This document shows, piece by piece, positions 13 to 59,363 of a stretch of 64,000 nucleotides of DNA. A program made the translations under genes and the position numbers. The notes beneath the pieces were generated by a model. The model had not been told where the DNA came from, made no database searches, and saw only the letters and a list, made by a program, of their open reading frames with translations. The number at the start of each line of letters is the position of its first letter. Positions within the stretch are counted from its first letter, which is position 1. The DNA is from an uncultured Chloroflexia bacterium (GTDB lineage Bacteria > Chloroflexota > Limnocylindria > Limnocylindrales > CSP1-4). The DNA is taken from the NCBI GenBank assembly GCA_963746845.1, contig CAVVCZ010000006.1, forward strand, positions 64,001 through 128,000, written 5' to 3'.

Positions 13-2031
13 GTGCCACGACTCGACCCTGACCGCCTGCTCGACGACCTCGACCCGGAGCAGCGCGAGGCGGTCCTCGCGACCAGCGGACCCGTCGCGA
101 TCCTCGCCGGCGCAGGGACCGGCAAGACCCGGGTCATCAGCCGGCGCACGGCCTACGCGATCGCAACGGATGTCGTCCCGCCGGACCAGGCCCTCGTCGT
201 CACGTTCACCGACAAGGCCGCCGGCGAGATGGTCGAGCGGCTCCGGGGGCTTGGGTTGCCGGGCGTCACCGCCCGGACCTTCCACGCCCACGCGCTCAGC
301 CAGCTCCGCCACTTCTGGCCGTCGCGCCACGACGGCGCGCCCCTCCCCGCGCTCCTCGACTCGAAGATCCCGATCCTCGGCCGGCTCGCGCGGCAGCTCC
401 CGGGCCACTTCCGGTTCACGCCCGCCAAGGACCTCGCCGACGAGATCGAGTGGGCGAAGTCGCGGCGGATCGACCCGCGGGCATACGAGCGCGAGGTCGC
501 GCGCCTCGCGCCCGGGCGTGAGCCGCCGATCCCGATCGACCTCTTCGTCCGGACGTTCGACAACTACGAGCGCGCGAAGACGCGGGCGGGCCGGATCGAC
601 TTCGATGACCTGCTCGTCGAGACCGTCCGGCTGCTCGAGGACGATGCCGAGGCCGCCGACACGGTCCGCGCGCGGAAGCGCTGGTTCAGCGTCGACGAGT
701 ACCAGGACACGAGCCCGCTCCAGGAGCGGCTGCTCGAGCTGTGGCTCGCCGACCGGCCGGACTTGTGCGTCGTCGGCGACGTGGACCAGACGATCTACAC
801 GTTCACCGGGGCGACGTCCGGATTCCTGACGTCCTTCGCCGAGCGGCATCCCGGCGCGCGGGTCCTCGACCTGACCCACAACTACCGCTCGACCCCACAG
901 GTGCTCGAGCTGGCGAACCGGTTGATCGCTGCCGACGGACGCTCGAAGCGACTGACCGCGAGCCGGAACGACGGCCCGGAGCCGACCGTGACTCGTCACG
1001 CGTCCGCCGAGGCCGAGTTGGTGGGCGTCGTCGCAGCGATCGGCGGCCTGATCCGCGACGGCGTCGCACCCGCCGAGATCGCGGTGCTCGTCCGGATGAA
1101 CGCGCAGATCGAGCCGATCGAGGAGGCGCTGACCCGCACCGGGATCGCCTACCAGGTGCGCGGGATCCGGTTCTTCGACCGGCCGGAGGTCAAGGCCGCC
1201 GTCGCGAGCGTCCGACGCCGCGGTCTCGACGCGACGGGTCTCGCGCTCGTCGCCGCCATCCGGCGGCGGTGGGTCGAGGACGTCGGCTTCGAGGAGGACG
1301 GTGCGTCGGCATCGGAGGGTCGCGAGGCGCAGGAGCGCCAGTCGTCGCTGGAGACGTTGCTCGCGATCGTCACCACGGTCGTCCATGCGGACGTCTCGAG
1401 CGACGCCGGCGCGATCGTCGCGGAGCTGGACCGGCGGGCGGCTCACGAGCGAGACAACGCCGGCGAGGGGGTGAACCTCCTCACGTACCATCGGGCGAAG
1501 GGCCTCGAATGGGACGCGGTCTTCCTGCCGATGCTCGAGGACGGCTCGCTCCCGATCCGCCAGGCGCTCGATGACGACGACGCGCTCGCCGAGGAGCGGC
1601 GGCTGCTCTATGTCGGGATCACCCGCGCCCGGATCCACCTCGCGCTGTCGTGGGCGGAGCGGCGCGAGACCCGCGGTCGCGAGGGTCGTCGTCAGCCGAG
1701 CCGGTTCCTGCTGGACCTTCGTCCCCGCTCGGCCGCCCGAACCGGCGAGCGTCGCGTGCGCGACCTCGGCGGGCCGCCGGCCGCCCCGCGCCCGCCGCGC
1801 CCGGGCGACGACGCCGACCCAGTCTTCGCGGCGCTGCGTGAGTGGCGCACGTCAACGGCCCGTTACGAGGGGATGCCGGCGTACGTGATCGCCCACGACT
1901 CGACCCTCGCGGCGATCGCGGAAGCACGGCCCGCGACGCTCGCGGCGCTCCGCCGCGTGAAGGGCATGGGCCCCACGAAGCTCGAGAGATACGGCGACGG
2001 CATCCTCGAGGTCCTCGCCGCCATCGACTGA
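13..2031 (+). CDS. uvrD2: ATP-dependent DNA helicase, UvrD2-like, with C-terminal HRDC domain
   Basis: Walker A AGAGTGKT, VDEYQD, VGDVDQTIY, NYRS, TYHRAKGLEW, EERRLLYVGITRAR; C-terminal LREWR...PAYVIAHDSTL...VKGMGPTKLERYG HRDC. Confidence 0.93.
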   Translation: MPRLDPDRLLDDLDPEQREAVLATSGPVAILAGAGTGKTRVISRRTAYAIATDVVPPDQALVVTFTDKAAGEMVERLRGLGLPGVTARTFHAHALSQLRHFWPSRHDGAPLPALLDSKIPILGRLARQLPGHFRFTPAKDLADEIEWAKSRRIDPRAYEREVARLAPGREPPIPIDLFVRTFDNYERAKTRAGRIDFDDLLVETVRLLEDDAEAADTVRARKRWFSVDEYQDTSPLQERLLELWLADRPDLCVVGDVDQTIYTFTGATSGFLTSFAERHPGARVLDLTHNYRSTPQVLELANRLIAADGRSKRLTASRNDGPEPTVTRHASAEAELVGVVAAIGGLIRDGVAPAEIAVLVRMNAQIEPIEEALTRTGIAYQVRGIRFFDRPEVKAAVASVRRRGLDATGLALVAAIRRRWVEDVGFEEDGASASEGREAQERQSSLETLLAIVTTVVHADVSSDAGAIVAELDRRAAHERDNAGEGVNLLTYHRAKGLEWDAVFLPMLEDGSLPIRQALDDDDALAEERRLLYVGITRARIHLALSWAERRETRGREGRRQPSRFLLDLRPRSAARTGERRVRDLGGPPAAPRPPRPGDDADPVFAALREWRTSTARYEGMPAYVIAHDSTLAAIAEARPATLAALRRVKGMGPTKLERYGDGILEVLAAID

Positions 2032-6470: not shown

Positions 6471-6872
6471 GTGGAATCGCTCGATCGGGTCGTCCGCTCG
6501 GCACTCGACGGCGACATCGTGTCGGCCGCGGTCTTCACCGTGGCGCCTGGCTCCGCGACGCTCGAGCTCGCGGCGGCGGCCGGGATCGAGGGTCCGGCGC
6601 TCGACGGTCTCGTGGCCGCGGTCCGGAATCCGGTCCATCCCGTGGCGCGGGCGCTCGCGGACGACGGGCCGACCTTCGACGTCGCACCGATGAACCCGGG
6701 TGGCCCGGCGCTGCGCAGCCATCTTCCGCTGTTCCGCGTCGCGGGCGGTGGCGCCGGCGAGGCGATCGGCGTGCTGGCCGTCTCCCACGACCACCCGCTG
6801 GATCCGGCCGCCCGGACCCGCCTCGAGTCCCTCGCGACCGCCGCGGCAGCCGCCATCGACGGTCCGCGCTAA
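6471..6872 (+). CDS. Stand-alone GAF-domain protein
   Basis: LELAAAAG...HLPL...IGVLAVS...LESLATAAAAAI GAF-like pattern. Confidence 0.65.
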   Translation: MESLDRVVRSALDGDIVSAAVFTVAPGSATLELAAAAGIEGPALDGLVAAVRNPVHPVARALADDGPTFDVAPMNPGGPALRSHLPLFRVAGGGAGEAIGVLAVSHDHPLDPAARTRLESLATAAAAAIDGPR

Positions 6873-6987
6873 GGCGAGCATCGACGCGCAAGACGCGCGC
6901 GAGACGCCGTCGCGACACAGTGGAGCCGATCGCCCTCGACGCCGCCTTCACCCGCCGACCGGCGATCGTGCGATGGGGGATGGACGG

Positions 6988-7926
6988 ATGGGCGGAACGC
7001 TGTTCGGGGTCGACGTGTCACCGTCGCAGGGCGTGGTCGACTGGGCGAAGGTGAAGGCCGGCGGGATCACGTTCGCCGTCGCCCGCTGCCTCCGCGAGAC
7101 CGGCACGATCGACACGACCTACCGCCGCAACGTCGACGGCGCGAAGACGGCAGGCCTGGTGCCGGGCGCCTACGCGTTCCTCGTCGGCGGCAACGCCAAG
7201 CACCAGGCGCAGACGTTCATCAAGGCCGTCGACGACCCGAAGGGCATGCTGATCATGCTCGACGTCGAGCGTCCGAAGATGAAGTCGAGCGCGGTCCCGA
7301 CCGCCGCCGACATCAGCGCGTTCGTCGGCGAGTGGCGCGCGGCCCATCCCGGTCACCCGATCATGATCTACGGGTCGATGGGCTCGGTCCTCGGGTCGAT
7401 CGGCAAGAAGGCCAACCTCCATGCGTTCGGCCCGCTCTGGCTCGCGTTCTATCGTCAGGGCCATACGCACGCGCCCGCCGGCTTCTACGAGTCGCTCGGC
7501 GGGAACCAGGCGAACCAGTGGCGGCTGAAGTTCGGCGGCTGGTCCGGGGCGACGATCTGGCAGTACACGAGCCACAACATCCACGTGCCCGGGATCCAGA
7601 AGCCGGACGGGACGTTCCTCGCCGTGGACACGAACGCGTTCCGTGGCACGAGGGCGGAGCTCCTCGCGCTGACCGGCACCGCGGGTCCGAACCCACTCGT
7701 CGCGTCGCCGCCGAAGCCCACGCCGGCCCCGGTCCCGGTCGCGGGCGGAACCGCCGGCGCAACGAAGGTCTTCCACACGGTCGCGCCCGGCGAGACGCTC
7801 TCGGGCATCGCCGCGAAGTTCGGGTTCAAGGGGTTCAAGGCCCTGATCAACCTGTTTCCGGAGAACCACAAGTTCAAGGCCAACCCGGGCCTGATCCACG
7901 TCGGCGACAAGGTGCGCGTGGGGTAG
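6988..7926 (+). CDS. GH25 muramidase with C-terminal LysM domain
   Basis: GVDVSPSQGVVDW, GAYAF, MLDVE (DxE), LWLAFY, IWQYTS; Pro linker then HTVAPGETLSGIAAKF...LIHVGDKV. Start 6973 or 6988. Confidence 0.88.
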   Translation: MGGTLFGVDVSPSQGVVDWAKVKAGGITFAVARCLRETGTIDTTYRRNVDGAKTAGLVPGAYAFLVGGNAKHQAQTFIKAVDDPKGMLIMLDVERPKMKSSAVPTAADISAFVGEWRAAHPGHPIMIYGSMGSVLGSIGKKANLHAFGPLWLAFYRQGHTHAPAGFYESLGGNQANQWRLKFGGWSGATIWQYTSHNIHVPGIQKPDGTFLAVDTNAFRGTRAELLALTGTAGPNPLVASPPKPTPAPVPVAGGTAGATKVFHTVAPGETLSGIAAKFGFKGFKALINLFPENHKFKANPGLIHVGDKVRVG

Positions 7927-8005: not shown

Positions 8006-9079
8006 TCAGGATCGGAGGCGCCGCGCGTTGAGCAGGCCGATCAGGACGATCGCTCCGGCCAGCATCATGCTCAGGGCCACGACCGGCAGCCATGCAGGGA
8101 ACACCATCTGCGCCACCGTGGCGTCCGACAACGGCATGGCGGCGGGGTCGTTCGACGGAGAGACGGCCGGCGCCGCGAGGGCGGCAAGCGGCACGGTCGA
8201 CTGGGAGCCGCTCCCGGCGGGATCAAGCGAGTCGACGCTCGAGGAGGCGGTCGGCGACTCGCTCGGCAGTGGGGTCGGCGTCGGCTTCGGCGTCGGGCGG
8301 GGCGTGGGTCGCGGGGTCGCCGTCGCCACCGGCTTCGGCTCGGCCTTGGCGGCGGGGCCGGATGCGATCGGCTGGACCGACACCCAGCGGCCTTCCCAGG
8401 CCATCCGGACGCCTGCGTAGTGCCACGGAGTGAAGAACCCGCGCAGCTGGCTCGGCGTCAGCTTGCGATCCGGCGTCATGTCATACCCGTAGCTCCGGCT
8501 CTGGAGACCCCAGAGTGGTCCGGTGACCCGGACGCTCGTCACGGTGAAGCGGCTGGTCGTCGCGGGATCCGCGGTGGCGCTGAACCCGGTCAGGACCCAC
8601 GCGTGGTTGCCGTGGGACACGGTGATCGCCACCGGCAGGTTGGTCTTCCGGAGGTTCGTGACCGCCGCGCGGAGCGCCGCGTCGAAGCTGGTGCTGGCGA
8701 CCAGGCGATAGCGCTTGTCGACGAAGTGCTGGAGCCCTGCGGTCCAGCCGGCCGGATCGACCCCGTCGGACACCGGGATCCGGTAGCGGTTGTGCTTGCG
8801 CATGTAGTCGAAGTACCGGCCCTGGCTTGCGCCGTTGTGGTCCGACCGGCGGTCGACGATGTTGCGGATGATCTGGACGTCGGCCGCGGTGCACCAGAGC
8901 CAGGTCGCCTGGGTCGTGAAGACGCCGTTCCGGTACAGATCGATGCCACCCGTCCAGCGCGACAGGGCACTGGCCGACGGCGCCGACGGTGACGCGGCGA
9001 AGATCGCGAACGACAGGGCAGCGAAGGTGGCCGCGAGGCCCCGAAGGGCGTGCCGGCGGCGGCGCGTAGGGCCGGCCAT
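8006..9079 (-). CDS. Secreted protein with papain-fold (C39-like) Cys/His motif, Pro-Thr linker and C-terminal TM anchor
   Basis: Arg-rich signal peptide; QATWLWCTAA; GNHAWVLTGF; PTP repeats; terminal hydrophobic helix plus RRLRS. Confidence 0.65.
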   Translation of the reverse strand: MAGPTRRRRHALRGLAATFAALSFAIFAASPSAPSASALSRWTGGIDLYRNGVFTTQATWLWCTAADVQIIRNIVDRRSDHNGASQGRYFDYMRKHNRYRIPVSDGVDPAGWTAGLQHFVDKRYRLVASTSFDAALRAAVTNLRKTNLPVAITVSHGNHAWVLTGFSATADPATTSRFTVTSVRVTGPLWGLQSRSYGYDMTPDRKLTPSQLRGFFTPWHYAGVRMAWEGRWVSVQPIASGPAAKAEPKPVATATPRPTPRPTPKPTPTPLPSESPTASSSVDSLDPAGSGSQSTVPLAALAAPAVSPSNDPAAMPLSDATVAQMVFPAWLPVVALSMMLAGAIVLIGLLNARRLRS

Positions 9080-9141: not shown

Positions 9142-10275
9142 CTACTCGAGCTCGATCGACAGCAACAGCGCCGGAGCCGGCCGGACGTCGACCTCGTAGT
9201 TGCGACGATGAGCGTCCCGGTCGGCCTTGAGGACCGCGTCGATCCGGGCGTCCGGGTTCGTGAAGTGGATCGCGTACTCGGCGGCGCCGCGCGCCGCCAC
9301 GAGACGCTCGATCGTCGCCGGGTCGGGGTTGCCGTCCTTCCCGTTCGCCGAGAAGACGTAGTGATCGGCGGTGATCTGCTCGAGGAGATGCGCGGGCTTC
9401 AGGACGTTCCGGATCGAGCCGTGATGCGGCATCTTCAGGATGTCGACGTGGATCGCGCCGTCCTTCAGCCGTCCCGCGACGTCTAGGTCCGCGAGGATGT
9501 CCGCGCCCAGCCCGTCGCCGGTCAGCAGCATCGTCCGGCCCTTCCGCTCGGCGAGGATGATGATGCTGCTCAGGTTGTAGACGGACCGGTCGACCGCCAG
9601 CGCGGCGGTCGCGACGTCCTTCTTCGGGGCCTTGGCGGCCTGCGCGGCGAGGAACGCATCCCAGGCCGCTCGCAGGTCGTCGATCCGCTTCTGGTGCGGC
9701 CCGATGACGGTCAGCGTGAGGTCGCCGTCAAGGTCGACCACGACCGGCCCGCCGACCGTCGCCATCGCCATGCCCGACGGGAAGTCCGCGTTCTCCGCGA
9801 CCTTCAGGACCTTCGCGACGCCGGACAGGTCGCGGGCCTGCGGGATCGTGGCGATCACGGCCTCCGATTCGGGGCCGACGTCCATGCCGACCGCCTCCCC
9901 GACCGACGCGACCGCGGCCGTCAGCGCGGCCGGCCCGTCGACCCCGAGGGCCGCCAGGTCGAACGCATTGAGCCACAGCCCGCCGACGTCGAACGGGGCG
10001 GCCATCTGCGACGCCGCGTCGTCCTCGAGCTCGGAGAACAAGTCGACGATCCCCGTGATGTGATCGGAGTCCATGTGGCTGACGATCACCCGCTCGAGCC
10101 GGAGCGGCTCCCCGTCGTCCAGCGCGGCGCCGAGCTGGACCAATCGCGGCCGGACGCTGCGCGGGTAGATCCCGGTTGGCCCGGCATCCAGGAGGATCTG
10201 CCGGCCCGGAGTGGCGCCGAACCGGACCAGCAGCGCGTCGCCGAAGTCCGCCTGGAGCGCCTCGAGGGTGAACAT
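9142..10275 (-). CDS. MBL-fold metallo-hydrolase (ComEC/Rec2-like)
   Basis: GDALL, LLDAG, SHMDSDHITG (HxDxDH), LLTGD, KMPHHGS, SANGKDGNPD. Confidence 0.88.
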   Translation of the reverse strand: MFTLEALQADFGDALLVRFGATPGRQILLDAGPTGIYPRSVRPRLVQLGAALDDGEPLRLERVIVSHMDSDHITGIVDLFSELEDDAASQMAAPFDVGGLWLNAFDLAALGVDGPAALTAAVASVGEAVGMDVGPESEAVIATIPQARDLSGVAKVLKVAENADFPSGMAMATVGGPVVVDLDGDLTLTVIGPHQKRIDDLRAAWDAFLAAQAAKAPKKDVATAALAVDRSVYNLSSIIILAERKGRTMLLTGDGLGADILADLDVAGRLKDGAIHVDILKMPHHGSIRNVLKPAHLLEQITADHYVFSANGKDGNPDPATIERLVAARGAAEYAIHFTNPDARIDAVLKADRDAHRRNYEVDVRPAPALLLSIELE

Positions 10276-10284
10276 CGGCCCGCC

Positions 10285-13200
10285 TCAGATCGACTGCATC
10301 GCGCGAAGCACGTCGACGAGACCGTGCCCCTGGAAGTAGCTCTCGCGACCGAGGTCGCTGGCGGTCGAGGTCAGGATCACCTTGATCCGTGACGGGTCAC
10401 CGATCAGCTCGTGGTACCGGGCCATCAGCAGGGCCGCACAGCCGCTGACGTGCGGCGCCGCCATGCTCGTCCCGTCGAGGAACCGGACCCCGCCCTCGGG
10501 GACCGACGACCAGATCTTCTCGCCCGGGGCGACGAGATCGGGCTTCGAGCGTCCGTCGCCCGTCGGCCCCCGACTGGAGAAGTAGCTCACGCCGTAGGCG
10601 TACGGCCGGTAGCCGTGTGTCGCCCCGACGGTGATCGCCGCCTCGGCGTTGCCGGGGTCGGTGATGCTCACCGTCCGGTAGCCGCCGTCGGCGTCGCCGC
10701 CGCCCGTGCCGGCGCGCGCTCGCAGGTACCCGTCGTTGCCCGCGGCCGCGACCACCACGACACCGGAGTTCACGAGCTTCGTGACGTCCTCGCAGACGGG
10801 CGTGCGCCCGCACGCGTAGTTCGCCACGTCGTGGCGGATCGAGAAGCTCATGTTCACGCCCTGGACCGTCAGGTCCTCGCGTTCGCTCGTCAGGCCCTGC
10901 AGGAACTCGATCGCCGCGAGGACGGCGAACTCGGTTCCGCCACCGCTCTCGTCGAAGACGCGGAGGTCGTACAGCTCGAGGGTCGGGCAGACGCCGATGA
11001 GGTCGTAGCTCGGCGGACCGAGCCCGTCCACCTTCTCGTCCGTCCGGCGCCAGTCGCCGGCCAGGATCCCCGCGACGTGCGTTCCGTGCTCGTTGGCGGG
11101 CGCCCGGTAGCCCTGCTTGACGACCTTGCCGGCGGCGTCCAGCTCGTCGGCCGCGTGGCGGATCCGCAGGAGATCGGCGAAGCGGGTCCATCGGATCGGC
11201 TTGCCGGCCCTCAGCGTGGTCAGCATCTCCCCCGCGAGCTCCCCGTTGGCGCGGACGCGCTCCGCGAGCGCCTGGTCGTCCATGAGGTCGAGGTTCTCGA
11301 GCCGTCGCGGATCCGTGAGCTCGCGGACGCCGCTGAAGTCATAGGTCTCGACGATCCGCGTGTTGTTGAGCGGCTTGCCGTCGTTGATCCCGAAGGCCAC
11401 CGCCTCGTGGTCGCCCACTGGCTTGCCCGTGCTCGGCGGCTTGCGCCGCCGAAACGCCGGATGCGTCGCATCGATGCCGCTGTCGACGACCGCCCAGGCG
11501 AGACCCTTGAAGTCGACCGGGAACAGGCCCCGGGCCGCATCGGCCTTCACCGTCGGGACGGACCGGTAGACGCTGACGTCCGCGTCGCGATTGAGGCTGA
11601 CCGTGAAGATCAGCTCCTTCTGGGTGGCGTTCGGGACGATCAGCCGGGCGACCGCGTCGACCAGCCGCCGGGCCCGAGCCATCTGGTCCTTGCCCTCGCG
11701 CAGCTCCGCGACGTCCGCCTTCGACGCGCCTTCGCGGACCAGCTGAATCCGGCCGACGAGGCGGACCCCCCACAGCACCGTTGACGGGACCGCCGGCCCG
11801 GTGTGCGGACCTTCCAGACCCGTCTCGAACTGGATGAGCTGGGCGGCCAGGTCATCGAGGCCCGCCTCGTCGCGGCCCGGGATGTCGAGCCACGTCCGCA
11901 CGACGGACCGCGACTCGATCCGCCACGCGCACAGCGGGAGCAGGTAGGCGACGAGCTCGCCGAAGTCGAGGCAGGCCGCGGTCGTGGACTGTGTGTACGC
12001 GAGTCGTGCCTCCGACGACACGCCTGCGGCGTTCAGGAGCCGGACGATCTCGCCGGGTGGGTTGGTGTCCCGCTCGGCTCGGTTCGGCGTGAGCAGCAGG
12101 TCGATCCGCTCGTTCGGCCGGTTGCCGTAGGCGAACCAGACGTCGGGCAGGATCGGCGAGTCCTGCGTGTAGCGGCGCAGGGACGACGAGTGGAAGATCA
12201 GGTCCTCGATCGCGCGCCGGCCGATCTTCGTGGTCTTCGGTCCGTCGCCGCCGGAGTCGCCGCCGGCGCCACCGACGCCGTCATCGCCCCGATTGCCTCC
12301 CCCGCCGCCACCGCTGGCGCCGCCGGCCCCGCCGCCTCCGCCTCGCCGGGGCGGCGGCCCGGGCGATCGCCTCGGCGCCGAGGCGGCCGCCACGGAGCGG
12401 GTCGGCCCCGCGGGTGCCGGGCCCGCCCCATCCGGGGGCTCGCCGGTCAGCCAGCCGAGCAGGGCGCGGCTCGTCTTCGCCTGGCCGAAGTAGTTGGCGT
12501 GCTCGACGCCGTCGTCCTTGCCGAAGAAGCACGGCTCGAGAACCGGGAACGGCGGCTCGAGGGTCCGCCCCTCGATGCTCTCGATGGCGACCATCCCGTC
12601 GTTCGCCCCGTGGAAGACGACGTCGTCCTTCAGCCCGTCGACGAAGAACGCCTTCAGGTCCGGATCGTCGGGCTCGTAATCCGAGTCGATCACGCGATAC
12701 GTCGTTCCCACCGGGACCCGGACGTTGTCGTTCAGCTTGTGGAGGAACGGCCGCGGCGGCGACATCGCATCGAGGCCGGCGAGGTCATGGGCCGTGTCGA
12801 CCGCGATCGCGCGGATCAGCCCGAAGATCGATTCGAGGACGTCGACCGCCGCCGGCAGCGGCGCGAACGACAGCAGCGTCGAGAGGCGGTCGATCATCTG
12901 GTTCCAGCGGTCGACGTTGGCCAGGTCCGTGCCGTTGGTCGTCGCCCCGACCAGGATCGCGGTGCCGACCGTCAGGTTCGGGCCGAGCGGCGCGAGGTCC
13001 TCCGGCCGCTCGACGATCGAGCGAGAGACGAGGCCGCCGCGCGAGTGGCAGACGAGATCGATCTCCAGCTTGTGAGAGCCGACGGCCTTGAAGAACTCGC
13101 GGGCGTTGTCGATCGGCGAGTCGGCGATCGTCGGATGGTCGAACGCGATCACTCGGCCCTCGTAGCGCTTGTGCAGCTCCTGGAGCGTGACGTCGGGCAG

Positions 13201-13908
13201 GCGCGCGAAGCAGCCCGTGATCGTGTCGAAGGTCCCGTGGATGAACAGCAGGCTCCGCCCGCCCTCGAGCCGCTTCCAGTCCGCGTCCTTGAGCGGCGAC
13301 AGCGACTTGTCCGGACCGTAGGCGCGGAGGACCGTCGGGTGGTGCTCGTGGTCCCACTTCCGGATCTCGAACTCGGCGACCTTGCCGGCGACGGCCGCGA
13401 CCGGGAACGTCACGACCTGGAGGATCTTCGAGATCCCGAAGCCGCGGCGGACCGGGCCCGACGGCACCCGCTCGATCTCGAACAGGTCGCTGCCGGCCGG
13501 CGTGAAGGTATCGTCCCGCTTCGGCGTCAGCGGGAAGTGCCAGGTCGTGATCCCGTGCTCGTCGCGCGAGAGGATCACCTGCGCCCGGTTCTTCGGCGGC
13601 TTCCTGACGGCGATGCGGATCCGCTCCGGTCGCCCCGCCGGCGCCGCGCCGCCCCGCCGGACCTCCCGGCTGACGGGGGTCACGTCGCTCGGCGAGTCGA
13701 TCCGGATCGTCGTCCGTGCCCGCATCGACTGTCGGCCCATCGCCCGCTGGAACGCGTCCGGAACCGGCGCCGCGAGATCGCGCGCCCCGCGCTTCGGCGC
13801 CGCGCCACGGCCCGGCTCGACCACGAGGTCGCCGGCAAGACCCGGCGCCGAGATCAGGATCCCGTCGACCTCGACGGGAGCGTCGCCCGTCAGCGACCGT
13901 CCGGCCAT
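10285..13908 (-). CDS. Fusion: N-terminal domain + alpha/beta-hydrolase (lipase-like) + Gly-rich linker + S8 subtilisin-like serine peptidase
   Basis: FIHGTF, CHSRGG, NDGMV, EHANYF; then VVDSGID, HGTHVAG, AAAGND, GTSMAAPHVSG. GGAGGAG RBS before ATG 13908. Confidence 0.9.
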   Translation of the reverse strand: MAGRSLTGDAPVEVDGILISAPGLAGDLVVEPGRGAAPKRGARDLAAPVPDAFQRAMGRQSMRARTTIRIDSPSDVTPVSREVRRGGAAPAGRPERIRIAVRKPPKNRAQVILSRDEHGITTWHFPLTPKRDDTFTPAGSDLFEIERVPSGPVRRGFGISKILQVVTFPVAAVAGKVAEFEIRKWDHEHHPTVLRAYGPDKSLSPLKDADWKRLEGGRSLLFIHGTFDTITGCFARLPDVTLQELHKRYEGRVIAFDHPTIADSPIDNAREFFKAVGSHKLEIDLVCHSRGGLVSRSIVERPEDLAPLGPNLTVGTAILVGATTNGTDLANVDRWNQMIDRLSTLLSFAPLPAAVDVLESIFGLIRAIAVDTAHDLAGLDAMSPPRPFLHKLNDNVRVPVGTTYRVIDSDYEPDDPDLKAFFVDGLKDDVVFHGANDGMVAIESIEGRTLEPPFPVLEPCFFGKDDGVEHANYFGQAKTSRALLGWLTGEPPDGAGPAPAGPTRSVAAASAPRRSPGPPPRRGGGGGAGGASGGGGGGNRGDDGVGGAGGDSGGDGPKTTKIGRRAIEDLIFHSSSLRRYTQDSPILPDVWFAYGNRPNERIDLLLTPNRAERDTNPPGEIVRLLNAAGVSSEARLAYTQSTTAACLDFGELVAYLLPLCAWRIESRSVVRTWLDIPGRDEAGLDDLAAQLIQFETGLEGPHTGPAVPSTVLWGVRLVGRIQLVREGASKADVAELREGKDQMARARRLVDAVARLIVPNATQKELIFTVSLNRDADVSVYRSVPTVKADAARGLFPVDFKGLAWAVVDSGIDATHPAFRRRKPPSTGKPVGDHEAVAFGINDGKPLNNTRIVETYDFSGVRELTDPRRLENLDLMDDQALAERVRANGELAGEMLTTLRAGKPIRWTRFADLLRIRHAADELDAAGKVVKQGYRAPANEHGTHVAGILAGDWRRTDEKVDGLGPPSYDLIGVCPTLELYDLRVFDESGGGTEFAVLAAIEFLQGLTSEREDLTVQGVNMSFSIRHDVANYACGRTPVCEDVTKLVNSGVVVVAAAGNDGYLRARAGTGGGDADGGYRTVSITDPGNAEAAITVGATHGYRPYAYGVSYFSSRGPTGDGRSKPDLVAPGEKIWSSVPEGGVRFLDGTSMAAPHVSGCAALLMARYHELIGDPSRIKVILTSTASDLGRESYFQGHGLVDVLRAMQSI

Positions 13909-13972
13909 CGTCTCCTCCGTTCCGACCATCGGCGGTCGCGCTGATGCTGGATCACGCGGGCGTCCGGTCCCG

Positions 13973-15202
13973 CTACGACAGGAAGGTCGACAGGTAGTCG
14001 GCCCAGTGCGTGTTCAGGTCGAAGTCGAGCTTCCGGTAGGTCTCCTCCGTGTCGGCATAGGCCCCCTTGTCCGACGGGAACCAGAACGCGAGACCGGTCG
14101 CGTCCCGGACCTTCGGTCCGAGGGCCGCACTCCGGATCCGGGCCTTGTCGAGCGACGCGACCAGGGCCGTGGCCGCAGGCGCCGCCTCCGGGAGCTCCTT
14201 CACGATCCGTCCGGCGAAGTCCTTCAGGTCGTACGTGTCGCGCTGGGCGAAGCCCTGCGTCTCCATCCGGATGAAGCTCAGGTTCCGGAAGCCGTCGTCG
14301 CCGAGGGGCTTCACCGCGTCCAGGAGCTCCGCGAAGCGGGCCGCGATCGTGTTCTTCGATCGGTAGGCGGCGAGGGTGCACGGGAACTGGTCCGGGCGGC
14401 TCGCGTACGACGCGTCGAACGCGTCGACCGCCATCCGGCCCCACGCGGCCGCGGTGCTCGGCGGCTTCTTCGTCATCGCCCCGAACAGGCGCTGGTAGTC
14501 CCAGCCGTCGCCCGGCTCGAGGTCCTCGGACCCGACGACGACCTGGGCGAACGGCTCGAGCTCGTCGAGGACCTCGACCATGCCGTTCAGGCACGTGTCC
14601 GAGAAGATCATGTCGAGCTTCCGTGTCTGGCCCGCCCGCTTGAACCCGGCCCGCAGGACGCCCGCGGCCTCGACGTTCGTCAGGACGCCCCCGCTCGTGT
14701 TGTCGTGGAGCATCGCCCGGACCTCGGCCTGGGCCGCCCTGTGGCGCGGGATGAACAGGCGCCGCGCGGGGATGGACCGGTTGCCGGCCTGCGGCGCGGC
14801 CTTCTGGAGCGCGGCCTCGAGGACCACCTGCTTCGGGTCGTCCTCGTCGAAGACCCCGGTGCCGTGATCCCAGAACCCCAGGGCGCGATGGGGAACCTTG
14901 TCATAGGTGATGAGCGCCCGGGCGAGGAAGGTGGCGAGCGTGTCCGGATCGCCCGTGTCGATCTCCCCGACCTTCTCGATGACCCGCTTGCCTTTGGTCG
15001 GCGAGATCTCGACGACCTGACCGCCGGCGCCCGCGAAGTCCGCGAGGCCGATGACGGCGAACCGGCCCTTGTTCCCCGCAGCCATCTCCTTGAGGTCCAG
15101 ATCGACGAAGTCGCTGAGGTTGTTGTCGCCACCGAAGAGCTCGATCACGACATGGCTGACGTCAATCGTCGAGACGGCGAACGGCTTGAGATCGGCGGCC
15201 AT
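13973..15202 (-). CDS. Clostripain-related cysteine peptidase (C11, clan CD)
   Basis: GDNNL...DLKEM, EIDTGDPDTL, FWDHGTG (His), FSDTCLNG (Cys), GSEDLEPGDGWDY; start re-assigned to MAADLKPF; no signal peptide. Confidence 0.88.
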   Translation of the reverse strand: MAADLKPFAVSTIDVSHVVIELFGGDNNLSDFVDLDLKEMAAGNKGRFAVIGLADFAGAGGQVVEISPTKGKRVIEKVGEIDTGDPDTLATFLARALITYDKVPHRALGFWDHGTGVFDEDDPKQVVLEAALQKAAPQAGNRSIPARRLFIPRHRAAQAEVRAMLHDNTSGGVLTNVEAAGVLRAGFKRAGQTRKLDMIFSDTCLNGMVEVLDELEPFAQVVVGSEDLEPGDGWDYQRLFGAMTKKPPSTAAAWGRMAVDAFDASYASRPDQFPCTLAAYRSKNTIAARFAELLDAVKPLGDDGFRNLSFIRMETQGFAQRDTYDLKDFAGRIVKELPEAAPAATALVASLDKARIRSAALGPKVRDATGLAFWFPSDKGAYADTEETYRKLDFDLNTHWADYLSTFLS

Positions 15203-15420
15203 CTGATCCCCCGCAGGTGGTTCGGCGACCCGTCCGGCCGTCCGTTGGCATGACCCTACGATCTCCGCGTCATCCCGACATCTCGCGATCAGAGCCCGGC
15301 CCGATCGCTCCGTGCACGGGTGTGGGCCGGGTGGTGAGCCTCGTGGACATGGCCCACGATGCGGCGGCGTCGATCCGCTGTCGCGGGTCGCCCGCGTGGG
15401 TGGCGCGAGGGAGGACATCG

Positions 15421-35496: not shown

Positions 35497-36525
35497 ATGC
35501 GCGCCTCGCGGTTGGTTTCGCTTCTCCTGCTCCTGCAGTCGCGCGGCGGCCAGACCGCTGCCGAGCTGGCCGAGGAGCTCGAGGTCTCGGTCCGGACGAT
35601 CCATCGCGACGTCGACGCGCTGAGCGCATCCGGCGTCCCGATCTACGCCGACCGCGGACCGCACGGCGGGATCCGCCTCGTCGACGGCTACCGCACCCGG
35701 CTCACCGGCATGACCGCGGACGAAGCCGAGGCGCTGTTCCTCGCCGGTCTGCCGGGCCCAGCCGCGGAGCTCGGGCTCGGGACGGTCGTGGCCGCCGCAC
35801 GGCTCAAGGTCCTTGCCTCCCTCCCGACCGAGCTGCGCGGCCGTGCGTCACGCCTCGTGGAGCGGTTCCATCTCGATGCGGCCGCCTGGTATCACGCGGA
35901 CGAGGCCGTGCCGCATCTCGGTGAGCTGTCCGAGGCGGTCTGGGAAGCTCGCCGGGTGAAGATCGGCTACAACCGCGGCGACAAGACCGTCGATCGGATC
36001 CTCGAGCCACTCGGCCTCGTCCTCAAGGCGGGCGTCTGGTACCTCGTGGCGCAGGCCGACGGCCAGCCGCGGACCTACCGCGTCTCGCGCGTCAGCCGCG
36101 TGGAGACGCTCGATGAGAGCTTCGAGCGGCCCGACCGGTTCGACCTCGCGGCGTTCTGGACCGAATCGAGCGCGGCCTACGAACGGGACACGCCGCGGGT
36201 CGAGGTTGTCCTCCGGATCGCCCGCGACCGGATCGACCGCCTCCGCGACGTGATCGGCGAACGGCCGTACGACACGATCGAACGGCTCGGCGACGACGAC
36301 GAGGGCTGGGTGCGTCTCCGGGTCAGGCTCGACTGGCCCAACGAGGTGACGACCCAGATCCTCGCGGTCGGGCCGGGCTGCGAGCTGCTGGAGCCGGAGC
36401 CGTTGCGCCGGCGGATCGCCGAGGAGGCGCGCCGGCTGGCCGCCCGGTACGACGACGAGGCGGCCGTCACGTCCGCCTCGTCGATCGCCCCGGCGCCGCC
36501 CGCGCCGGCCGTGGCCGCAGGCTAG
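35497..36525 (+). CDS. YafY/PafC-like HTH-WYL-WCX transcriptional regulator
   Basis: MRASRL...TAAELAEELEVSVRTIHRD, EPLGLV.KAGVWYLVA, RTYRVSRV. Confidence 0.93.
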   Translation: MRASRLVSLLLLLQSRGGQTAAELAEELEVSVRTIHRDVDALSASGVPIYADRGPHGGIRLVDGYRTRLTGMTADEAEALFLAGLPGPAAELGLGTVVAAARLKVLASLPTELRGRASRLVERFHLDAAAWYHADEAVPHLGELSEAVWEARRVKIGYNRGDKTVDRILEPLGLVLKAGVWYLVAQADGQPRTYRVSRVSRVETLDESFERPDRFDLAAFWTESSAAYERDTPRVEVVLRIARDRIDRLRDVIGERPYDTIERLGDDDEGWVRLRVRLDWPNEVTTQILAVGPGCELLEPEPLRRRIAEEARRLAARYDDEAAVTSASSIAPAPPAPAVAAG

Positions 36526-52247: not shown

Positions 52248-52637
52248 TCACGCGACCGACCGACCCGAGGTCGAGACCACGGCGTCGATCAGCTCGTGCG
52301 GCCGGAATGTCTTTCGAGCGTAGGCATCGGCGCCGCTGGCCAGGTCCGCGGTATCGGACCAGTTGAGGACGAGGACACGGGCGGTCGGAGCGACCACCCG
52401 GATCTTCGCGATCAAGGCGGCACCGGCGTCGACACCCGGCAGGCGGGGATCGACGACGACGACATCGGGTTCGGAGTCCTTGGCGAGGCGAAGGGCGGCG
52501 TCGGCGGTGCCGGCACTGCCCACGACGAGACAGCGTTGACCGATCCGGAGCAAGCCGGCGAGGCTTTCGCGTACGCGATCGTCGGGATCGACGAGAAGCA
52601 CGCGGAGCGGAGCCGGCGCTGCAGCAGAGTCGGTCAT
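52248..52637 (-). CDS. Single-domain response regulator (receiver only)
   Basis: VLLVDPD, DVVVVDPRLP, AYARK. Confidence 0.8.
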   Translation of the reverse strand: MTDSAAAPAPLRVLLVDPDDRVRESLAGLLRIGQRCLVVGSAGTADAALRLAKDSEPDVVVVDPRLPGVDAGAALIAKIRVVAPTARVLVLNWSDTADLASGADAYARKTFRPHELIDAVVSTSGRSVA

Positions 52638-52701
52638 GAGCCGAAGTGTCGGCTCGTTGACACGGCAACCGACAGCGACCGACGTCGAGTCTCGGCCTAC
52701 G

Positions 52702-55700
52702 TCATTCCGCCGATGCGCGGATCGAGGCGACCGTCTCGCCCGACGGGGCGGACTCGTCGGCGGCGCGCGCGATCGCCTCCGGTGGGACGGTCACGACGAT
52801 CGTCGTCCCGTCGCCGATCCGGGAGTCGACGTCGAACCGGGCTCCGATCTTCTCGGCCCGGGCGCGCATCCCCGCGAGCCCCAGGTGGCCGTCCGGCACG
52901 GACGCGGCGTCGAAGCCCTTGCCGTCGTCGCGGATCCGGAGGACGACCGCGCCGCCCTTGCGCCCCACGGTCAGCTCGACCTGCCGGGCGCCGGCGTGCT
53001 TGACGACGTTGTGGAGCGCCTCCTGGGAGATCCGGTACAGGACCTCCTCGAGCGCGAGCGGCAACCGGTCGCCGAGGTCGCTCGTCACGACGATCGGCAG
53101 CCCGATCCGGCCCTGGAGGGCCGACGCGTGGGTCCGGAGGGCCAGCAGCAGGCCGTCGTTCTCGAGGTTGCCGGGGCGCAGCTCGAAGATCAGCGCCCGC
53201 ATCTCGGCGAGGGCCTCACGCTGGAGATCGCGGAGGGAGCCCAGCTTCTCCTTGGCGGCGGCCGGATCGCGGTCCACGAGCAGCTCCGTGCTCCGCGTGA
53301 TCAGGGTCATGCTGAACAGGGCCTGGGTGACCGAGTCGTGGAGCTCTCGGGCGAGGTGGGCGCGCTCCTGGCTCGACGCGAGCTCGCCCGCCTGGCGCAT
53401 CAGGTCGCGCTCGAGACGCTCGCGCTCGGTGATGTCGCGGGTCGCGCCGTGGATGCCGGTGAAGACACCGTCGACGGTCGCGCCGATCGAGCTGACCTCG
53501 ACCGCGACGGTCCCGCCGTCCTTGCGCAACAGCTCGAGCTTCACGACCTGGCGGGCCGACGGCTCGGCGACCAGCTGGGTCCAGCGGTCCACGGCAACCT
53601 CGAGCGACGCGGGATCGATGATCCGCGAGAAGTGCTGGCCGACCAGCTCGGTCTGGAGGTAGCCGGTCATCGTCTCGATCGTCTCGGACAGGAACGTGAA
53701 CACGCCCTGGTCGTCCGTGGAGAAGACGACGTCCGGGGCGTTCTCGACGAGGAACCGGTAGCGCTCCTCGGATTCGCGCAGCTCGCGCTCGAGGCGCGTC
53801 TGCTCGCTCATGTCGCGGACGCTCCCGTTCGCGCCCCCGAAGTGGCCGGTCTCGTCGCGGGTCGCGAACGCGATGAACTCGGTCGGGATCGGGTGACCGT
53901 CCTTGTGGAGCAGGTTCACCCGGCCACGGAGCTCCCGCCCGCCGCTGCCGTCGTCGGCGGCCAGCCCGACCGTCCAGTCGATCTCCGCGACCTCGCGCGA
54001 GGACTCGTGGACGAGGGCCCCGAAGTGCTTGCCGAGGAGCTCGTCGGCACCCCAGCCGGTCAGGCGCCGGCTCGTCGAGTCGGAGACGAACGTGAACCGG
54101 GCGTCGGCGTCGATCGACCAGACGAGGTCCGGCGAGTTCTGGACGAGGTTGCGGTAGCGCGCCTCGGACTCGCCGAGGAGCTCGTACAGGTTGGCGTTGG
54201 TCAGGGCGATCGCGGCCTGGTCGGCCAGGCCCTGGAGGAGGTCCAGCTCGTCGGGCAGGATCTCCCGCGGCCGGGCGTACGAGACCGCGAGCGTGCCGAT
54301 CACCTCGCCCGCGGGTGCCCGGAGTGGCGCCGCGGCGAGGGCCCGGAGCTGAAGCCGCTCGGCCGCGAGCTCGTCGTCGGGCTCGTGCGGGATCCGGGGG
54401 TCGTTCGCGTAGTCGTACGTCCAGACCGGCTGGACCTCGAGGGCAGCCAGGCCGTTGATCCCACCGCCGAGCGGGAACTGCATGCCCTTCAGCCAGTCCT
54501 CGGTGTCGCTGTCCATGCCGCCCGCGACGATGACCGGCACGAGGAAGGTGCCGTCGTCGGACATCCGGGTGAGGTGGGCGCCGTCGGACCCCAGCAGCCG
54601 GCGCGACTCCTCGACGACCCGGGCCAGGAGCTCGCCTGGATCGCCGAGCGAGGTGATCCGCGAGGCGATGTCCCGGAGCGATCGCTCGGTTTCCGCGCGC
54701 GCCGCGAGCTCGCGCTGCGAGCGCTCCAGCTCGTCGATCAGCCGGGCATTGAGCATCGCGATCGCCGCCTGGTCTGCCAGGGCGCCAAGGAGGTTCGCCT
54801 CGTCCGCCCCGAACGTGCCGGGCGTCGACGAGAAGACCGCGAGCGTGCCGAGCGCACCGCGCTCGGACACGAGCGGCGCGATCGCGATCGCCCGAAGCCC
54901 GATCTCCTTCGCGACCGCCGCGCCGTCGGCATCGGGCGCGAAGCGCGGGTCGCCGAGGTAGTCGATCGTGAAGAGGGGCGCTCGCCCGGCGATCGTCCGG
55001 CGGACGATGTCCTCGCCGACGCGCGTCGTCTCCCAGCGCCGGCTGCGCTCCTCGTCGAGGCCGCCGACGTAGCCCATCGCGATCGTTCCACTGATCGGGT
55101 CGAGCAGGTCGATGATCGCCCCGTCCGAGCCGAGCAGGCGGGCGGCCTCGTCGGCGACGTGCTGGAGCAGCTCGGGCGTGTCACGGATCGCGGTGATCCG
55201 GGCCGCGATCTCACGCAGGGAGCGTTCGGCCTCGGCGCGCCGGCTGATGTCCCGGCGCGACTGGTTCAGCTCCTCGATGAGGCGCGTGTTCGTGATCGCG
55301 ATCGCGGCCTGGGCGGCGAGCGAACGGATGACGCCGGCATCATCCGCGTCGAACGCCCCGGAGGCGCGGGAGTAGACCTCGAGCGCTCCGAGCGGACCGG
55401 CTTCCCCGCTGATCGGGGCGATGATCATCGAGCGGAAGCCGGTCACCCCGAAGAACCGGTCGTTGACCGCGGACGGCGGGAAGTGCAGCCCGAGATCGTC
55501 GCTGGCGGTCACCAGCCGGTTCTCGGCCACCGCGACGCCGGTCGCCCCGACGCCGACCGGGATCGTCAGCTCGGCGATCTCCTCCGGCGTGAACAGCGCG
55601 CCGATGCCCGAGTCGTAGGTCCAGCGCAGCACTCCGGCGCCCGGGTCGAGGAGGTCGAGCACGGACCCGTCCGCGCCCACGAGCCGCTGCGCGGCGTCGA

Positions 55701-58686: not shown

Positions 58687-58937
58687 GACCTGAGGATATC
58701 CGACCGTTTTCGCTTCCCGCGATCGACCGTGGGCGGGCCCGTCTACGTCATTCGTCGCGTTCCGAGGTCGTCTGGTCGCCGAGCGGAGACGGCCCATCGA
58801 CGGTCGGCGGCCGCGGCCAACGTCACGCCGCCTTGTCGACGGCAGCCGACGGCCGGTGCCACGACCCGGGATCGACGATGCGACCCGACGCCGACGAACC
58901 GGCGACACCCCCTCCACCACAGAGGTACCGCTCCGCC

Positions 58938-59363
58938 ATGAACCCCCGCAGCAGCCTGCGCCCGCTCGACGTGGTCATCCGGATCGCGATCGTCGGTCTC
59001 GTCCTCGGCACCGCCTACATCCACTCGACGCTCGGCGGTCTCCTGTTCACGCTCAACGCCACCGGCTATCTTGTCGCCGCAGTCGCGATCGTCATCCCGC
59101 TCGGGCTCGCGATCCGCTTCCGCTGGTTCATCCGCCTGGGCCTCATGGGCTACGCGGCGACCGCGATCGTCGCCTGGGCCATCCAGGGTCCGTACTACAC
59201 CACCGCCTACATCGCGAAGGCGATCGAGGTCACGCTGATCCTCCTGCTGGCGGTCGACTTCGCCCGCATGGACGGCAACCCGATCAACGTCGTCAAGAGC
59301 GAGCTCGGCCTGCTGGCCTCGAAGATGGGTCGCCGCCCGGCCACGAGCCAGGCCGGCGCCTGA
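58938..59363 (+). CDS. Four-TM membrane protein
   Basis: TAYIH, FTLNATGY, KAIEV; start MNPRSS. Confidence 0.75.
   Translation: MNPRSSLRPLDVVIRIAIVGLVLGTAYIHSTLGGLLFTLNATGYLVAAVAIVIPLGLAIRFRWFIRLGLMGYAATAIVAWAIQGPYYTTAYIAKAIEVTLILLLAVDFARMDGNPINVVKSELGLLASKMGRRPATSQAGA

Follow-up and report, generated by a model that had tools for sequence, protein, structure and literature searches.

The window analysed here is a stretch of 64,000 nucleotides from contig CAVVCZ010000006.1, with a guanine plus cytosine (GC) content of 72%, and it belongs to the 3.56 Mb, 92% complete genome of an uncultured soil Chloroflexia bacterium. Three genes of the same orientation, all on the minus strand, stand together in it and encode a C11 peptidase, an alpha/beta-hydrolase fused to an S8 subtilase, and a hydrolase that has the metallo-beta-lactamase (MBL) fold. 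The first gene (13973-15202) encodes a C11 (clostripain-family, clan CD) cysteine peptidase of 409 amino acids, which was identified by Pfam, a 19-sequence alignment, its profile and a fusion in the congener G016; its open frame spans 13973-15418, and the start at 15202 (MAADLKPF) lines up with most of the 18 aligned homologue N-termini. The second (10285-13929) encodes the fusion protein of 1214 amino acids, or 1207 when counted from M8, the start at 13908 that homologue N-termini make likely, and the third (9142-10275) encodes a ComEC-like MBL-fold hydrolase of 377 amino acids, a putative gated pro-nuclease according to PADLOC, alignment, AlphaFold2 (AF2), Foldseek and profile comparisons. 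The GC content at third codon positions (GC3) is 0.90-0.95 in the three genes and matches that of real genes of this genome. A first-pass annotation, made from the letters of the DNA, had described three co-oriented, tightly spaced genes with intact catalytic motifs and without signal peptides; with the starts at 15202 and 13908 the gaps are indeed 64 nucleotides from the C11 gene to the fusion and 9 nucleotides from the fusion to the MBL gene, the motifs were found intact by Pfam and family alignments, and a crude hydropathy check detected no N-terminal hydrophobic core in any of the three proteins, which look cytoplasmic. A promoter and terminator scan detected 0 promoter-like sites; terminator-like sites numbered 2, where 2.1 were expected.

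Relatives of the fusion protein were collected in a scan of one genome per species, in which 80 loci were returned and 92 candidate stretches encoded a relative; the counts per part were obtained by tblastn on the 80 loci. The S8 half (fusion residues 561-1214) was matched in 79 loci, the MBL in 74 and the hydrolase half in two (L001 and L003). An MBL gene follows the S8 gene, always on the same strand, in 74 of the 79 S8-bearing loci, with a median gap of 21.5 nucleotides and with 66 of the 74 gaps not exceeding 100 nucleotides, and four of the other five S8 loci stop at a contig or locus edge, L054 alone being a true case of absence. Elsewhere the S8 enzyme is a standalone protein of about 590-760 amino acids, which begins at fusion residue ~567-569. 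The hosts, as named in the records, come from more than ten phyla and include Acidobacteriota, Actinomycetota, Verrucomicrobiota, Gemmatimonadota, Planctomycetota, Myxococcota, Desulfobacterota-type lineages, Methylomirabilota, Hydrogenedentota, Proteobacteria and Chloroflexota. Because S8 and MBL are adjacent in such a large share of these loci, and because the whole set of genes is syntenic in two further assemblies, sequence comparison indicates that S8 plus MBL is a conserved core and that the gene arrangement is not due to chance.

The neighbours of the pair were clustered, antisense frames called in GC-rich loci (cluster c2) being ignored, and 54 of them were scanned, namely 52 immediate same-strand neighbours plus two opposite-strand TIR/WD40-type examples. 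Patatin-like phospholipase genes were found beside S8-MBL in 13 loci by clustering, and the Pfam Patatin family was matched by 10 of the 54 scanned proteins; since Patatin genes adjoin S8-MBL in several loci, lipid hydrolases seem to have been recruited repeatedly to the pair. TIR plus WD40/PD40 beta-propeller proteins are encoded on the opposite strand beside S8-MBL at L022, L024, L027, L035, L045, L054 and L068 (actinomycete) (clusters c3 and c13), and TIR_2 was confirmed for both examples scanned.

The MBL matches Pfam Lactamase_B (E-value 5.6e-8) and, over its full length, the PADLOC models LmuA PDLC03854 (4.9e-41), Avs1a (2.8e-26) and RTasMBL (4.2e-24). The motifs H67xD69xD71H72 and H284H285 are invariant in 64 aligned sequences, and D254 is also among the catalytic residues. 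The AF2 model, built with 64 homologues, has a predicted local distance difference test score (pLDDT) of 90 and a predicted template modelling score (pTM) of 0.91, with exactly two low-confidence stretches, within residues 101-140 (57-77 in ten-residue pLDDT blocks) and residues 201-240 (53-81). In the alignment each weak stretch falls on variable columns of biased composition, after which a conserved segment comes: insertion 1 (9862-9963, minus strand, about residues 105-138) has Ala/Ser/Gly/Pro-rich columns and then a conserved AVxASVxQGR, and insertion 2 (about residues 205-232, 9580-9663, minus strand) has Lys/Ala/Glu-rich columns and then a conserved AAx[YF]xDxSVxNLSS. Judged by pLDDT and variable columns, each is a candidate gating loop. 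The best solved match of the model in Foldseek is the ComEC beta-lactamase-like domain 9ic4 (E-value 1.7e-10), which has 266 amino acids against the 377 here, and the family profile matches ComEC chains (best E-value 7.9e-11). The modelled structure thus has a ComEC-like core with two insertions, as in characterised gated nucleases. The pattern S-V-x-[Q/N], which is shared after both insertions, was considered as a recognition site of the S8 enzyme, and it was retained as a lead only, the propeptide-junction segment of S8 being spaced differently.

Such a set of proteins might in principle be read as a secreted nutritional or degradative protease, lipase and hydrolase, since clostripains and subtilases are classically exported, and the more distant matches of the C11 peptidase do carry dockerin or pre-peptidase domains. 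The three N-termini are, however, not signal-like in the hydropathy check, the MBL belongs to a ComEC-like, defence-associated family, and nutritional enzymes would not be expected to show so tight an S8-MBL pairing across phyla; we give this explanation hardly any credence.

The S8 subtilase module comprises fusion residues 567-1214 and the stop codon (10285-12231, minus strand) and was delimited by Pfam, PADLOC, alignment and AF2. Pfam Peptidase_S8 is matched at fusion residues 812-1203 (10321-11496) with an E-value of 2.6e-41 and the PADLOC 'subtilase' model with 2.2e-42. The triad D816, H951 and S1155, which has the Asp-His-Ser order of subtilases and places the module in peptidase family S8, is invariant in 52 aligned sequences, and N1065 is also present. 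In the AF2 model of the module (52 homologues, pLDDT 80.6, pTM 0.88), a region of about 240 amino acids ahead of the catalytic domain is folded; the best Foldseek matches of this model are the unautoprocessed pro-subtilisins 3whi, 3afg and 2z2z, and a language-model atlas points, with a borderline score of 0.90, to the prodomain of CspB. These model comparisons suggest that the region retains a propeptide-like element. Between fusion residues 400 and 812 no Pfam domain was found and no sensor family was recognised, and the ~240-residue region is the only candidate sensor of the protein. After the region of the catalytic His, at fusion residues ~1033-1046, lies an invariant HDVANYACGxTPVC segment, whose two invariant cysteines, C1040 and C1046, may form a disulfide or a metal site; a Cys-x5-Cys segment of the same type occurs in C11-S8 fusions of Sphingomonas.

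The arrangement of an MBL with a protease has recently received a functional explanation in two studies. Tuck et al. (Science 2025, PMC12799240) showed that the trypsin-linked ComEC-like MBLs of Hachiman and AVAST are 'gated' pro-nucleases of phage defence, cleavage taking place at two conserved Ile residues that lie on two insertions, and that a caspase-nuclease system (canu) operates in the same way. Evans et al. (bioRxiv 10.1101/2025.11.14.688446) confirmed the zymogen deoxyribonuclease (DNase) mechanism for trypsin-clade MBLs, described as a second zymogen an alpha/beta-hydrolase that is cut twice at Arg-Gly by a caspase-like protease, and divided the protease-associated MBLs into three clades, trypsin-like, caspase-like and S8 subtilisin-like ('Clade 3'). 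The words clostripain and C11 are absent from the accessible texts of both papers. A literature search returned nothing on a subtilase plus an MBL in defence and nothing on DUF7379, the family of the hydrolase module; searches for clostripain with phage defence, one of which was badly framed, returned nothing relevant, and a term search of PMC8195603 (eLife 2021) gave nothing specific.

In the window, as in the gated nucleases, a ComEC-like fold with intact metal motifs and two inserted flexible loops is encoded next to a protease gene. Clade 3 likewise has an MBL beside an S8 subtilisin-like protease, and here the MBL is ComEC-like with two inserted loops and appears to be cytoplasmic; compared with Clade 3 as listed in the accessible text, the S8 enzyme of the window has an N-terminal DUF7379 hydrolase and a preceding C11 gene. 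HamMAB, the Avs pairs and VcMBL/VcAvs2 also combine a dedicated protease with a ComEC-like MBL bearing two insertions, theirs being about 90-100 residues apart, and the PADLOC/NCBIfam models of HamMAB/Avs-type MBLs match the window MBL. The HamMAB/Avs protease is described as trypsin-like, sensor-fused (HamA-HamB, STAND), encoded downstream of the MBL and cutting after a conserved Ile, whereas that of the window is an S8 enzyme encoded upstream of the MBL with no recognisable sensor. Canu (CanABC), as described, likewise has a non-trypsin protease, an MBL nuclease downstream and a clan-CD protease in the locus, but there the nuclease's protease is CanA itself, a MALT1-like caspase with an immunoglobulin-like fold, whereas the clan-CD enzyme of the window is a C11 peptidase, the conserved partner of the MBL is S8 instead of a caspase, and no CanB-like gene was identified. 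The LmuA match notwithstanding, the SMC-like LmuB partner of Lamassu is not among the flanking genes; no nucleoside triphosphatase (NTPase), as would accompany AVAST type 1, was found among the neighbour genes scanned; and no gasdermin gene lies beside the protease as in bacterial gasdermin-protease loci, the gasdermin family being absent from the Pfam matches of the three proteins and of the neighbours scanned. The PADLOC matches to LmuA, Avs1a and RTasMBL and, as far as their accessible texts go, the two 2025 papers agree with the proposal of the first-pass annotation that the closest relatives are immune protease-effector modules. The novelty implied by its not recognising the four-enzyme combination as a named system was overstated, given that the S8-MBL core is already catalogued as Clade 3 in the accessible text of Evans et al.; the unusual part is the hydrolase fusion together with C11.

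The alpha/beta-hydrolase module covers fusion residues 8-496 (12442-13908, minus strand), as defined by Pfam, alignments and homologue ends; it ends where its homologues end, at about residue 496, and the linker then begins. Pfam DUF7379 is matched at fusion residues 227-400 (12730-13251) with an E-value of 3.4e-44, and a match to DUF7362 at residues 81-147 is sub-threshold. In the family alignment S296 and D444 of the triad are invariant and H477 is nearly so; a phmmer search of the PDB sequences with the hydrolase region gave no match. A protein search with this region over 5.8 billion proteins gave 165 matches, of which 120 were listed. The closest of the listed matches are nine C14 caspase plus DUF7379 proteins (30-34% identity, ~92% coverage), most of the remaining ones carry CHAT, often with TPR-S, and six of the 120 combine CHAT, DUF7379 and C11; the pairing of DUF7379 with S8 is found, among these 120, in the window's own protein only. 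In the partner proteins of DUF7379 there are Pfam domains whose names refer to 'ternary complex' conflict systems, as well as TPR-S sensors. The hydrolase module is likewise fused to a protease in the DUF7379-CHAT/caspase/C11 proteins (DUF7362, DUF7363, TCAD7 and TPR-S architectures), the protease there being of clan CD, often with TPR-S sensors, in place of the S8 partner seen here. Architectures of the DUF7379 type reportedly originate from work of the Aravind group on 'NTP-dependent conflict systems'. One of the matches, P0017, is a single protein of 1760 amino acids with the order DUF7379-CHAT-TPR-S-MBL, an all-in-one analogue with hydrolase, protease, sensor and MBL. At L164, from a metagenome-assembled genome (MAG) of Verrucomicrobiia, a standalone DUF7379 homologue (60% identity) is preceded by a transglutaminase-like (DUF553) protein of 568 amino acids (49-1755, plus strand), which may be another cysteine-protease partner of DUF7379.

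With its intact Ser-Asp-His triad and its association with a clan-CD protease, the module resembles the LcCaspase-LcHydrolase pair in the accessible text of Evans et al., in which a lipase-like alpha/beta-hydrolase likewise occurs with a clan-CD cysteine protease and has Arg-Gly N-terminal to the core. LcHydrolase is a separate and smaller protein (~33 kDa from fragment sizes), whereas the window module has about 490 amino acids and is fused to S8. The idea that the Lysobacter LcCaspase/LcHydrolase pair is itself a C11/DUF7379 pair was dropped: two Lysobacter C11 loci are ordinary clostripain-like ones without DUF7379 neighbours, and the DUF7379-like matches in the Lysobacter genomes reached are weak (28-33 bits).

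Two Arg-Gly positions attract attention in the fusion protein. Shortly before the hydrolase core, G163 is preceded by a nearly invariant R162, and a second upstream Arg-Gly, which is present in many hydrolase homologues, is absent from the window protein. The other position is an RRG in the Gly/Pro/Arg-rich low-complexity linker (fusion residues 497-566, 12232-12441, minus strand), which was defined from the translation and from comparison with G016 and the closest related contig, L001; the linkers of the window, G016 and L001 (n=3), though otherwise divergent, all retain an RRG. In L001 (~11590-11870) the hydrolase part and the S8 part are not in the same frame, a single shift falling within the G-rich linker; this points either to an assembly error in a GC-rich repeat or to a genuine division of the gene in two. 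Exact short contigs scattered across the window locus were found in four soil-metagenome DNA runs of one study; none of them spans the linker or the gene junctions, and they neither confirm nor question the frame of the fusion, and no RNA run is listed among the sequencing runs that match the locus. Complex prediction for C11 and the hydrolase module gave a score of 0.37, the best of 3 controls scoring 0.00; of 80 solved complexes 58 attain the mark set for this score, as do 2 of 110 mismatched pairs, and at 0.60 or below it is attained by only 7 of those 80 and by the two passing mismatches. Between runs at least 12% of contacts agree, and the pLDDT of the partner is at least 74. The prediction lends weak support to a contact between C11 and the hydrolase.

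The C11 peptidase matches Pfam Peptidase_C11 with an E-value of 7.6e-28, and its catalytic H113 and C204 (numbered from the 15202 start), a His-Cys dyad in the HG...C context of peptidase family C11, are invariant in 19 aligned sequences, the interval between them holding an Arg-rich segment. Its profile matches solved zymogens and split chains (6n9j, 6mzo and 3uws/4yec) and covers both chains of self-processed structures of the PmC11 type, with a break at query residues ~117-187, in the Arg-rich segment. Clostripain-type enzymes prefer Arg, and the C11 of the window is probably Arg-specific and self-processing. A genome scan with C11 gave 79 loci, 23 of them at 43-87% identity. Next to close C11 homologues lie a DUF7379 hydrolase at L086, a CHAT protein at L087 and C14 proteins at both L094 and L097; at L104 a close C11 homologue stands beside a hydrolase-S8 protein, at L103 C11 and S8 share a single frame, and at L090 and L096 large GH19 plus PG_binding_1 proteins were found. 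A search with the C11 part among long proteins gave 56 matches, six of which are C11+S8 fusion proteins with a C11 part 40-45% identical. One of these six, the Sphingomonas quercus protein P0149 ('S8 family serine peptidase'), aligns with the polypeptide of G016 at identities of 44% over C11 and 41% over S8; the region between the two is alpha/beta-hydrolase-like, and the protein shares with the window the same C11 clade, the same S8 subfamily and the Cys-x5-Cys motif. It differs in its hydrolase, which has no DUF7379 match and belongs to a different family, and in having no MBL within 8 kb of its locus. Because single C11-hydrolase-S8 proteins without an MBL occur in Sphingomonas, this triad appears from its sequences to be a recurrent unit in its own right. 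In P0126 and L096 (4353-9239), close relatives of C11 (~47% identity) form the C-terminus of proteins of about 1600 amino acids, which contain immunoglobulin-like or CshA repeats, a GH19-like part, PG_binding_1 and two hydrophobic segments before C11, and have no signal-like N-terminus.

The composite form, with the hydrolase fused before S8 and a C11 gene, was found only in the window, in the near-identical contig L001 and in G016. L001, from an uncultured Chloroflexia MAG, is the closest relative of the locus (91% identity over the fusion protein). In G016 (identities of 79% for C11, 79% for the hydrolase, 69% for S8 and 62% for the MBL), C11, hydrolase and S8 lie in one open frame of 1693 codons, which is followed by the MBL. 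G022 has a standalone S8 and an MBL only. G000 apart, the MBL was found in 3 of the 24 genomes scanned within the genus, and the sister family yielded 0 of 16; many of these genomes are incomplete. Because of the single frame of G016, the fusions of DUF7379 with proteases and the C11+S8 fusion proteins, C11 and the hydrolase can be assigned to the system on sequence grounds. That C11 is a chance neighbour, the real unit being the fusion protein with the MBL, would fit its being matched in 1 (L001) of the 80 loci fetched with the fusion query and the lack of any match between C11 and a PADLOC model; however, C11 is in frame with hydrolase-S8 in G016, it accompanies the hydrolase fusion in each of the three assemblies where that fusion occurs, and analogous C11-hydrolase-S8 and C11-CHAT-DUF7379 single proteins exist elsewhere, which makes this alternative highly improbable. 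The expectation that the genes co-occur in other genomes thus held for S8 with MBL and, in two further assemblies, for the syntenic full set, but not for C11 across the wider sample.

On balance we lean towards reading the locus as a composite cytoplasmic proteolysis-gated suicide or defence operon, in which two protease-effector pairs are physically joined. The first pair would be the widespread S8 subtilase and MBL, the MBL being a latent ComEC-like DNase in which the two inserted loops mask the active site; by analogy with the tested trypsin- and caspase-linked MBLs, the adjacent subtilase would cut these loops and thereby release DNA degradation. The second pair would be the C11 peptidase and the DUF7379 hydrolase, the latter acting as a lipase-like second latent effector. 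C11 may cut the Arg-Gly sites (R162-G163 and the linker RRG), so that the hydrolase would be activated or freed and separated from the subtilase; the two sites are reminiscent of the Arg-Gly sites of the tested hydrolase zymogen. The physical fusion would couple both pairs.

A strict linear order had been proposed by the first-pass annotation, in which C11 is the initiator that cleaves the fusion and frees lipase and subtilase, both of which then activate the MBL. C11 does lie upstream of the hydrolase-S8 protein or, in G016, forms one frame with it, the linker RRG sits where cutting would free S8 at its natural N-terminus, the close C11 relatives adjoin second proteases of the C14, CHAT and S8 families at the loci named above, and the complex prediction adds its weak support. 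Yet the S8-MBL pair occurs without C11 in 73 of 74 paired loci, and S8 can therefore in general do without C11; there is no sign of a lipase acting on the MBL; and the reverse order, with S8 processing the inter-domain linker of C11, is equally compatible. We regard the strict order as unlikely. What survives of the proposal is the activation of the MBL by the subtilase, which fits the S8-MBL pairing, and the action of C11 on the fusion, which is backed by the frame of G016 and by the RRG, and the hydrolase is more likely a second latent effector than an activator of the MBL. Within the composite operon that we prefer, a two-tier cascade, with an initiator C11 and an executioner subtilase in series releasing a DNase and a lipid or ester hydrolase at once, seems to us doubtful.

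Several points weigh against the composite operon. The experiments, as given in the accessible texts, cover the trypsin clade (both papers) and the caspase clade (Tuck et al.) only, and Clade 3 is listed there from a tree. DUF7379 and LcHydrolase were compared by description, and the two candidate cleavage sites, R162-G163 and the linker RRG, are read from conservation only. The MBL scores 127 bits with the NCBIfam Avs1a model against a cut-off of 420 bits, and since it falls so far below that cut-off it is best classed as a relative of Avs1a and not as a member. No sensor domain (STAND, TPR, WD40 or helicase) was found by Pfam in or beside the operon. C11, besides having no PADLOC match, is dispensable for the core, and 20 of the 56 proteins related to it combine PG_binding_1 and C11 with immunoglobulin-like, CshA or GH19 parts, architectures that hint at other, possibly cell-wall-related, uses of this C11 clade. 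The surroundings of the operon in the window are housekeeping genes, so that the expected association with a defence island is not seen there, and among the 54 neighbours scanned across genomes, a small and noisy sample, only 8 PADLOC families were matched (E-value of 1e-10 or below), each in a single protein; the evidence for a defence island is thin.

The flanking genes encode a secreted protein, a GH25 protein, a DUF1697 protein and a sigma-70 factor, and the flank common to the window, L001 and G016 consists of the sigma-70 gene, an open reading frame (ORF) of 96 amino acids, the secreted protein of 357 amino acids and the GH25 gene. The same biochemistry could serve a role other than anti-phage defence, such as, in a multicellular or filamentous lineage, regulated self-destruction or kin conflict, or else stress-triggered death. 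This would suit the stable syntenic chromosomal position in three assemblies next to the sigma-70 gene, with no mobile genes seen around the locus, and the association of DUF7379 with 'ternary complex' conflict-system domains and TPR-S sensors; Evans et al. (10.1101/2025.11.14.688446), in the accessible text, raise stress responses beyond phage defence for protease-effector modules. Against it, the MBL-protease modules tested so far are all phage-triggered, and the distribution, patchy within the genus and spread over many phyla, fits accessory immune genes. We consider such a role quite unlikely.

The secreted protein is encoded by an ORF of 357 amino acids at 8006-9079 (minus strand, GC3 0.91), 62 nucleotides downstream of the MBL gene and on the same strand. 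Its N-terminus is signal-like, and it further has a Pro/Thr-rich region, a C-terminal hydrophobic anchor and no Pfam match; the gene is kept at the same place in L001 and G016 (66-78% identity) and was not found beside S8-MBL elsewhere; it is probably a cell-envelope gene unrelated to the operon. The GH25 lysozyme-like gene at 6700-7926 (plus strand), which has a weak LysM match, also stands beside the locus in L001 and G016. Farther away in the window, an HTH-WYL-WCX regulator, of a class often linked to defence or DNA-damage regulation, is encoded at 35497-36525 (plus strand), 20 kb from the operon, and a sensor kinase of 2072 amino acids with eight GAF domains, PAS domains, HisKA_3 and HATPase_c at 52702-58920 (minus strand); the long ORF antisense to the latter (52636-58941, plus strand) is a GC-content artefact.

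Protease-gated effectors were shown in 2025 to be a major logic of bacterial immunity, and the present locus is a compact, sensor-less-looking example of the subtilase-linked MBL clade, in which a natural fusion ties two proteases of different clans to two different putative latent effectors. It opens the questions of what triggers an S8-MBL pair with no obvious sensor, which sequence in the MBL loops is cut by S8, and whether immune proteases act in series. Even if the cascade fails, the catalogue of protease-effector modules is widened and a clear module boundary is placed at about fusion residue 567. If the two-tier cascade is true, bacteria would have in this locus an equivalent of initiator and executioner caspases, driving nuclease activation together with membrane damage.

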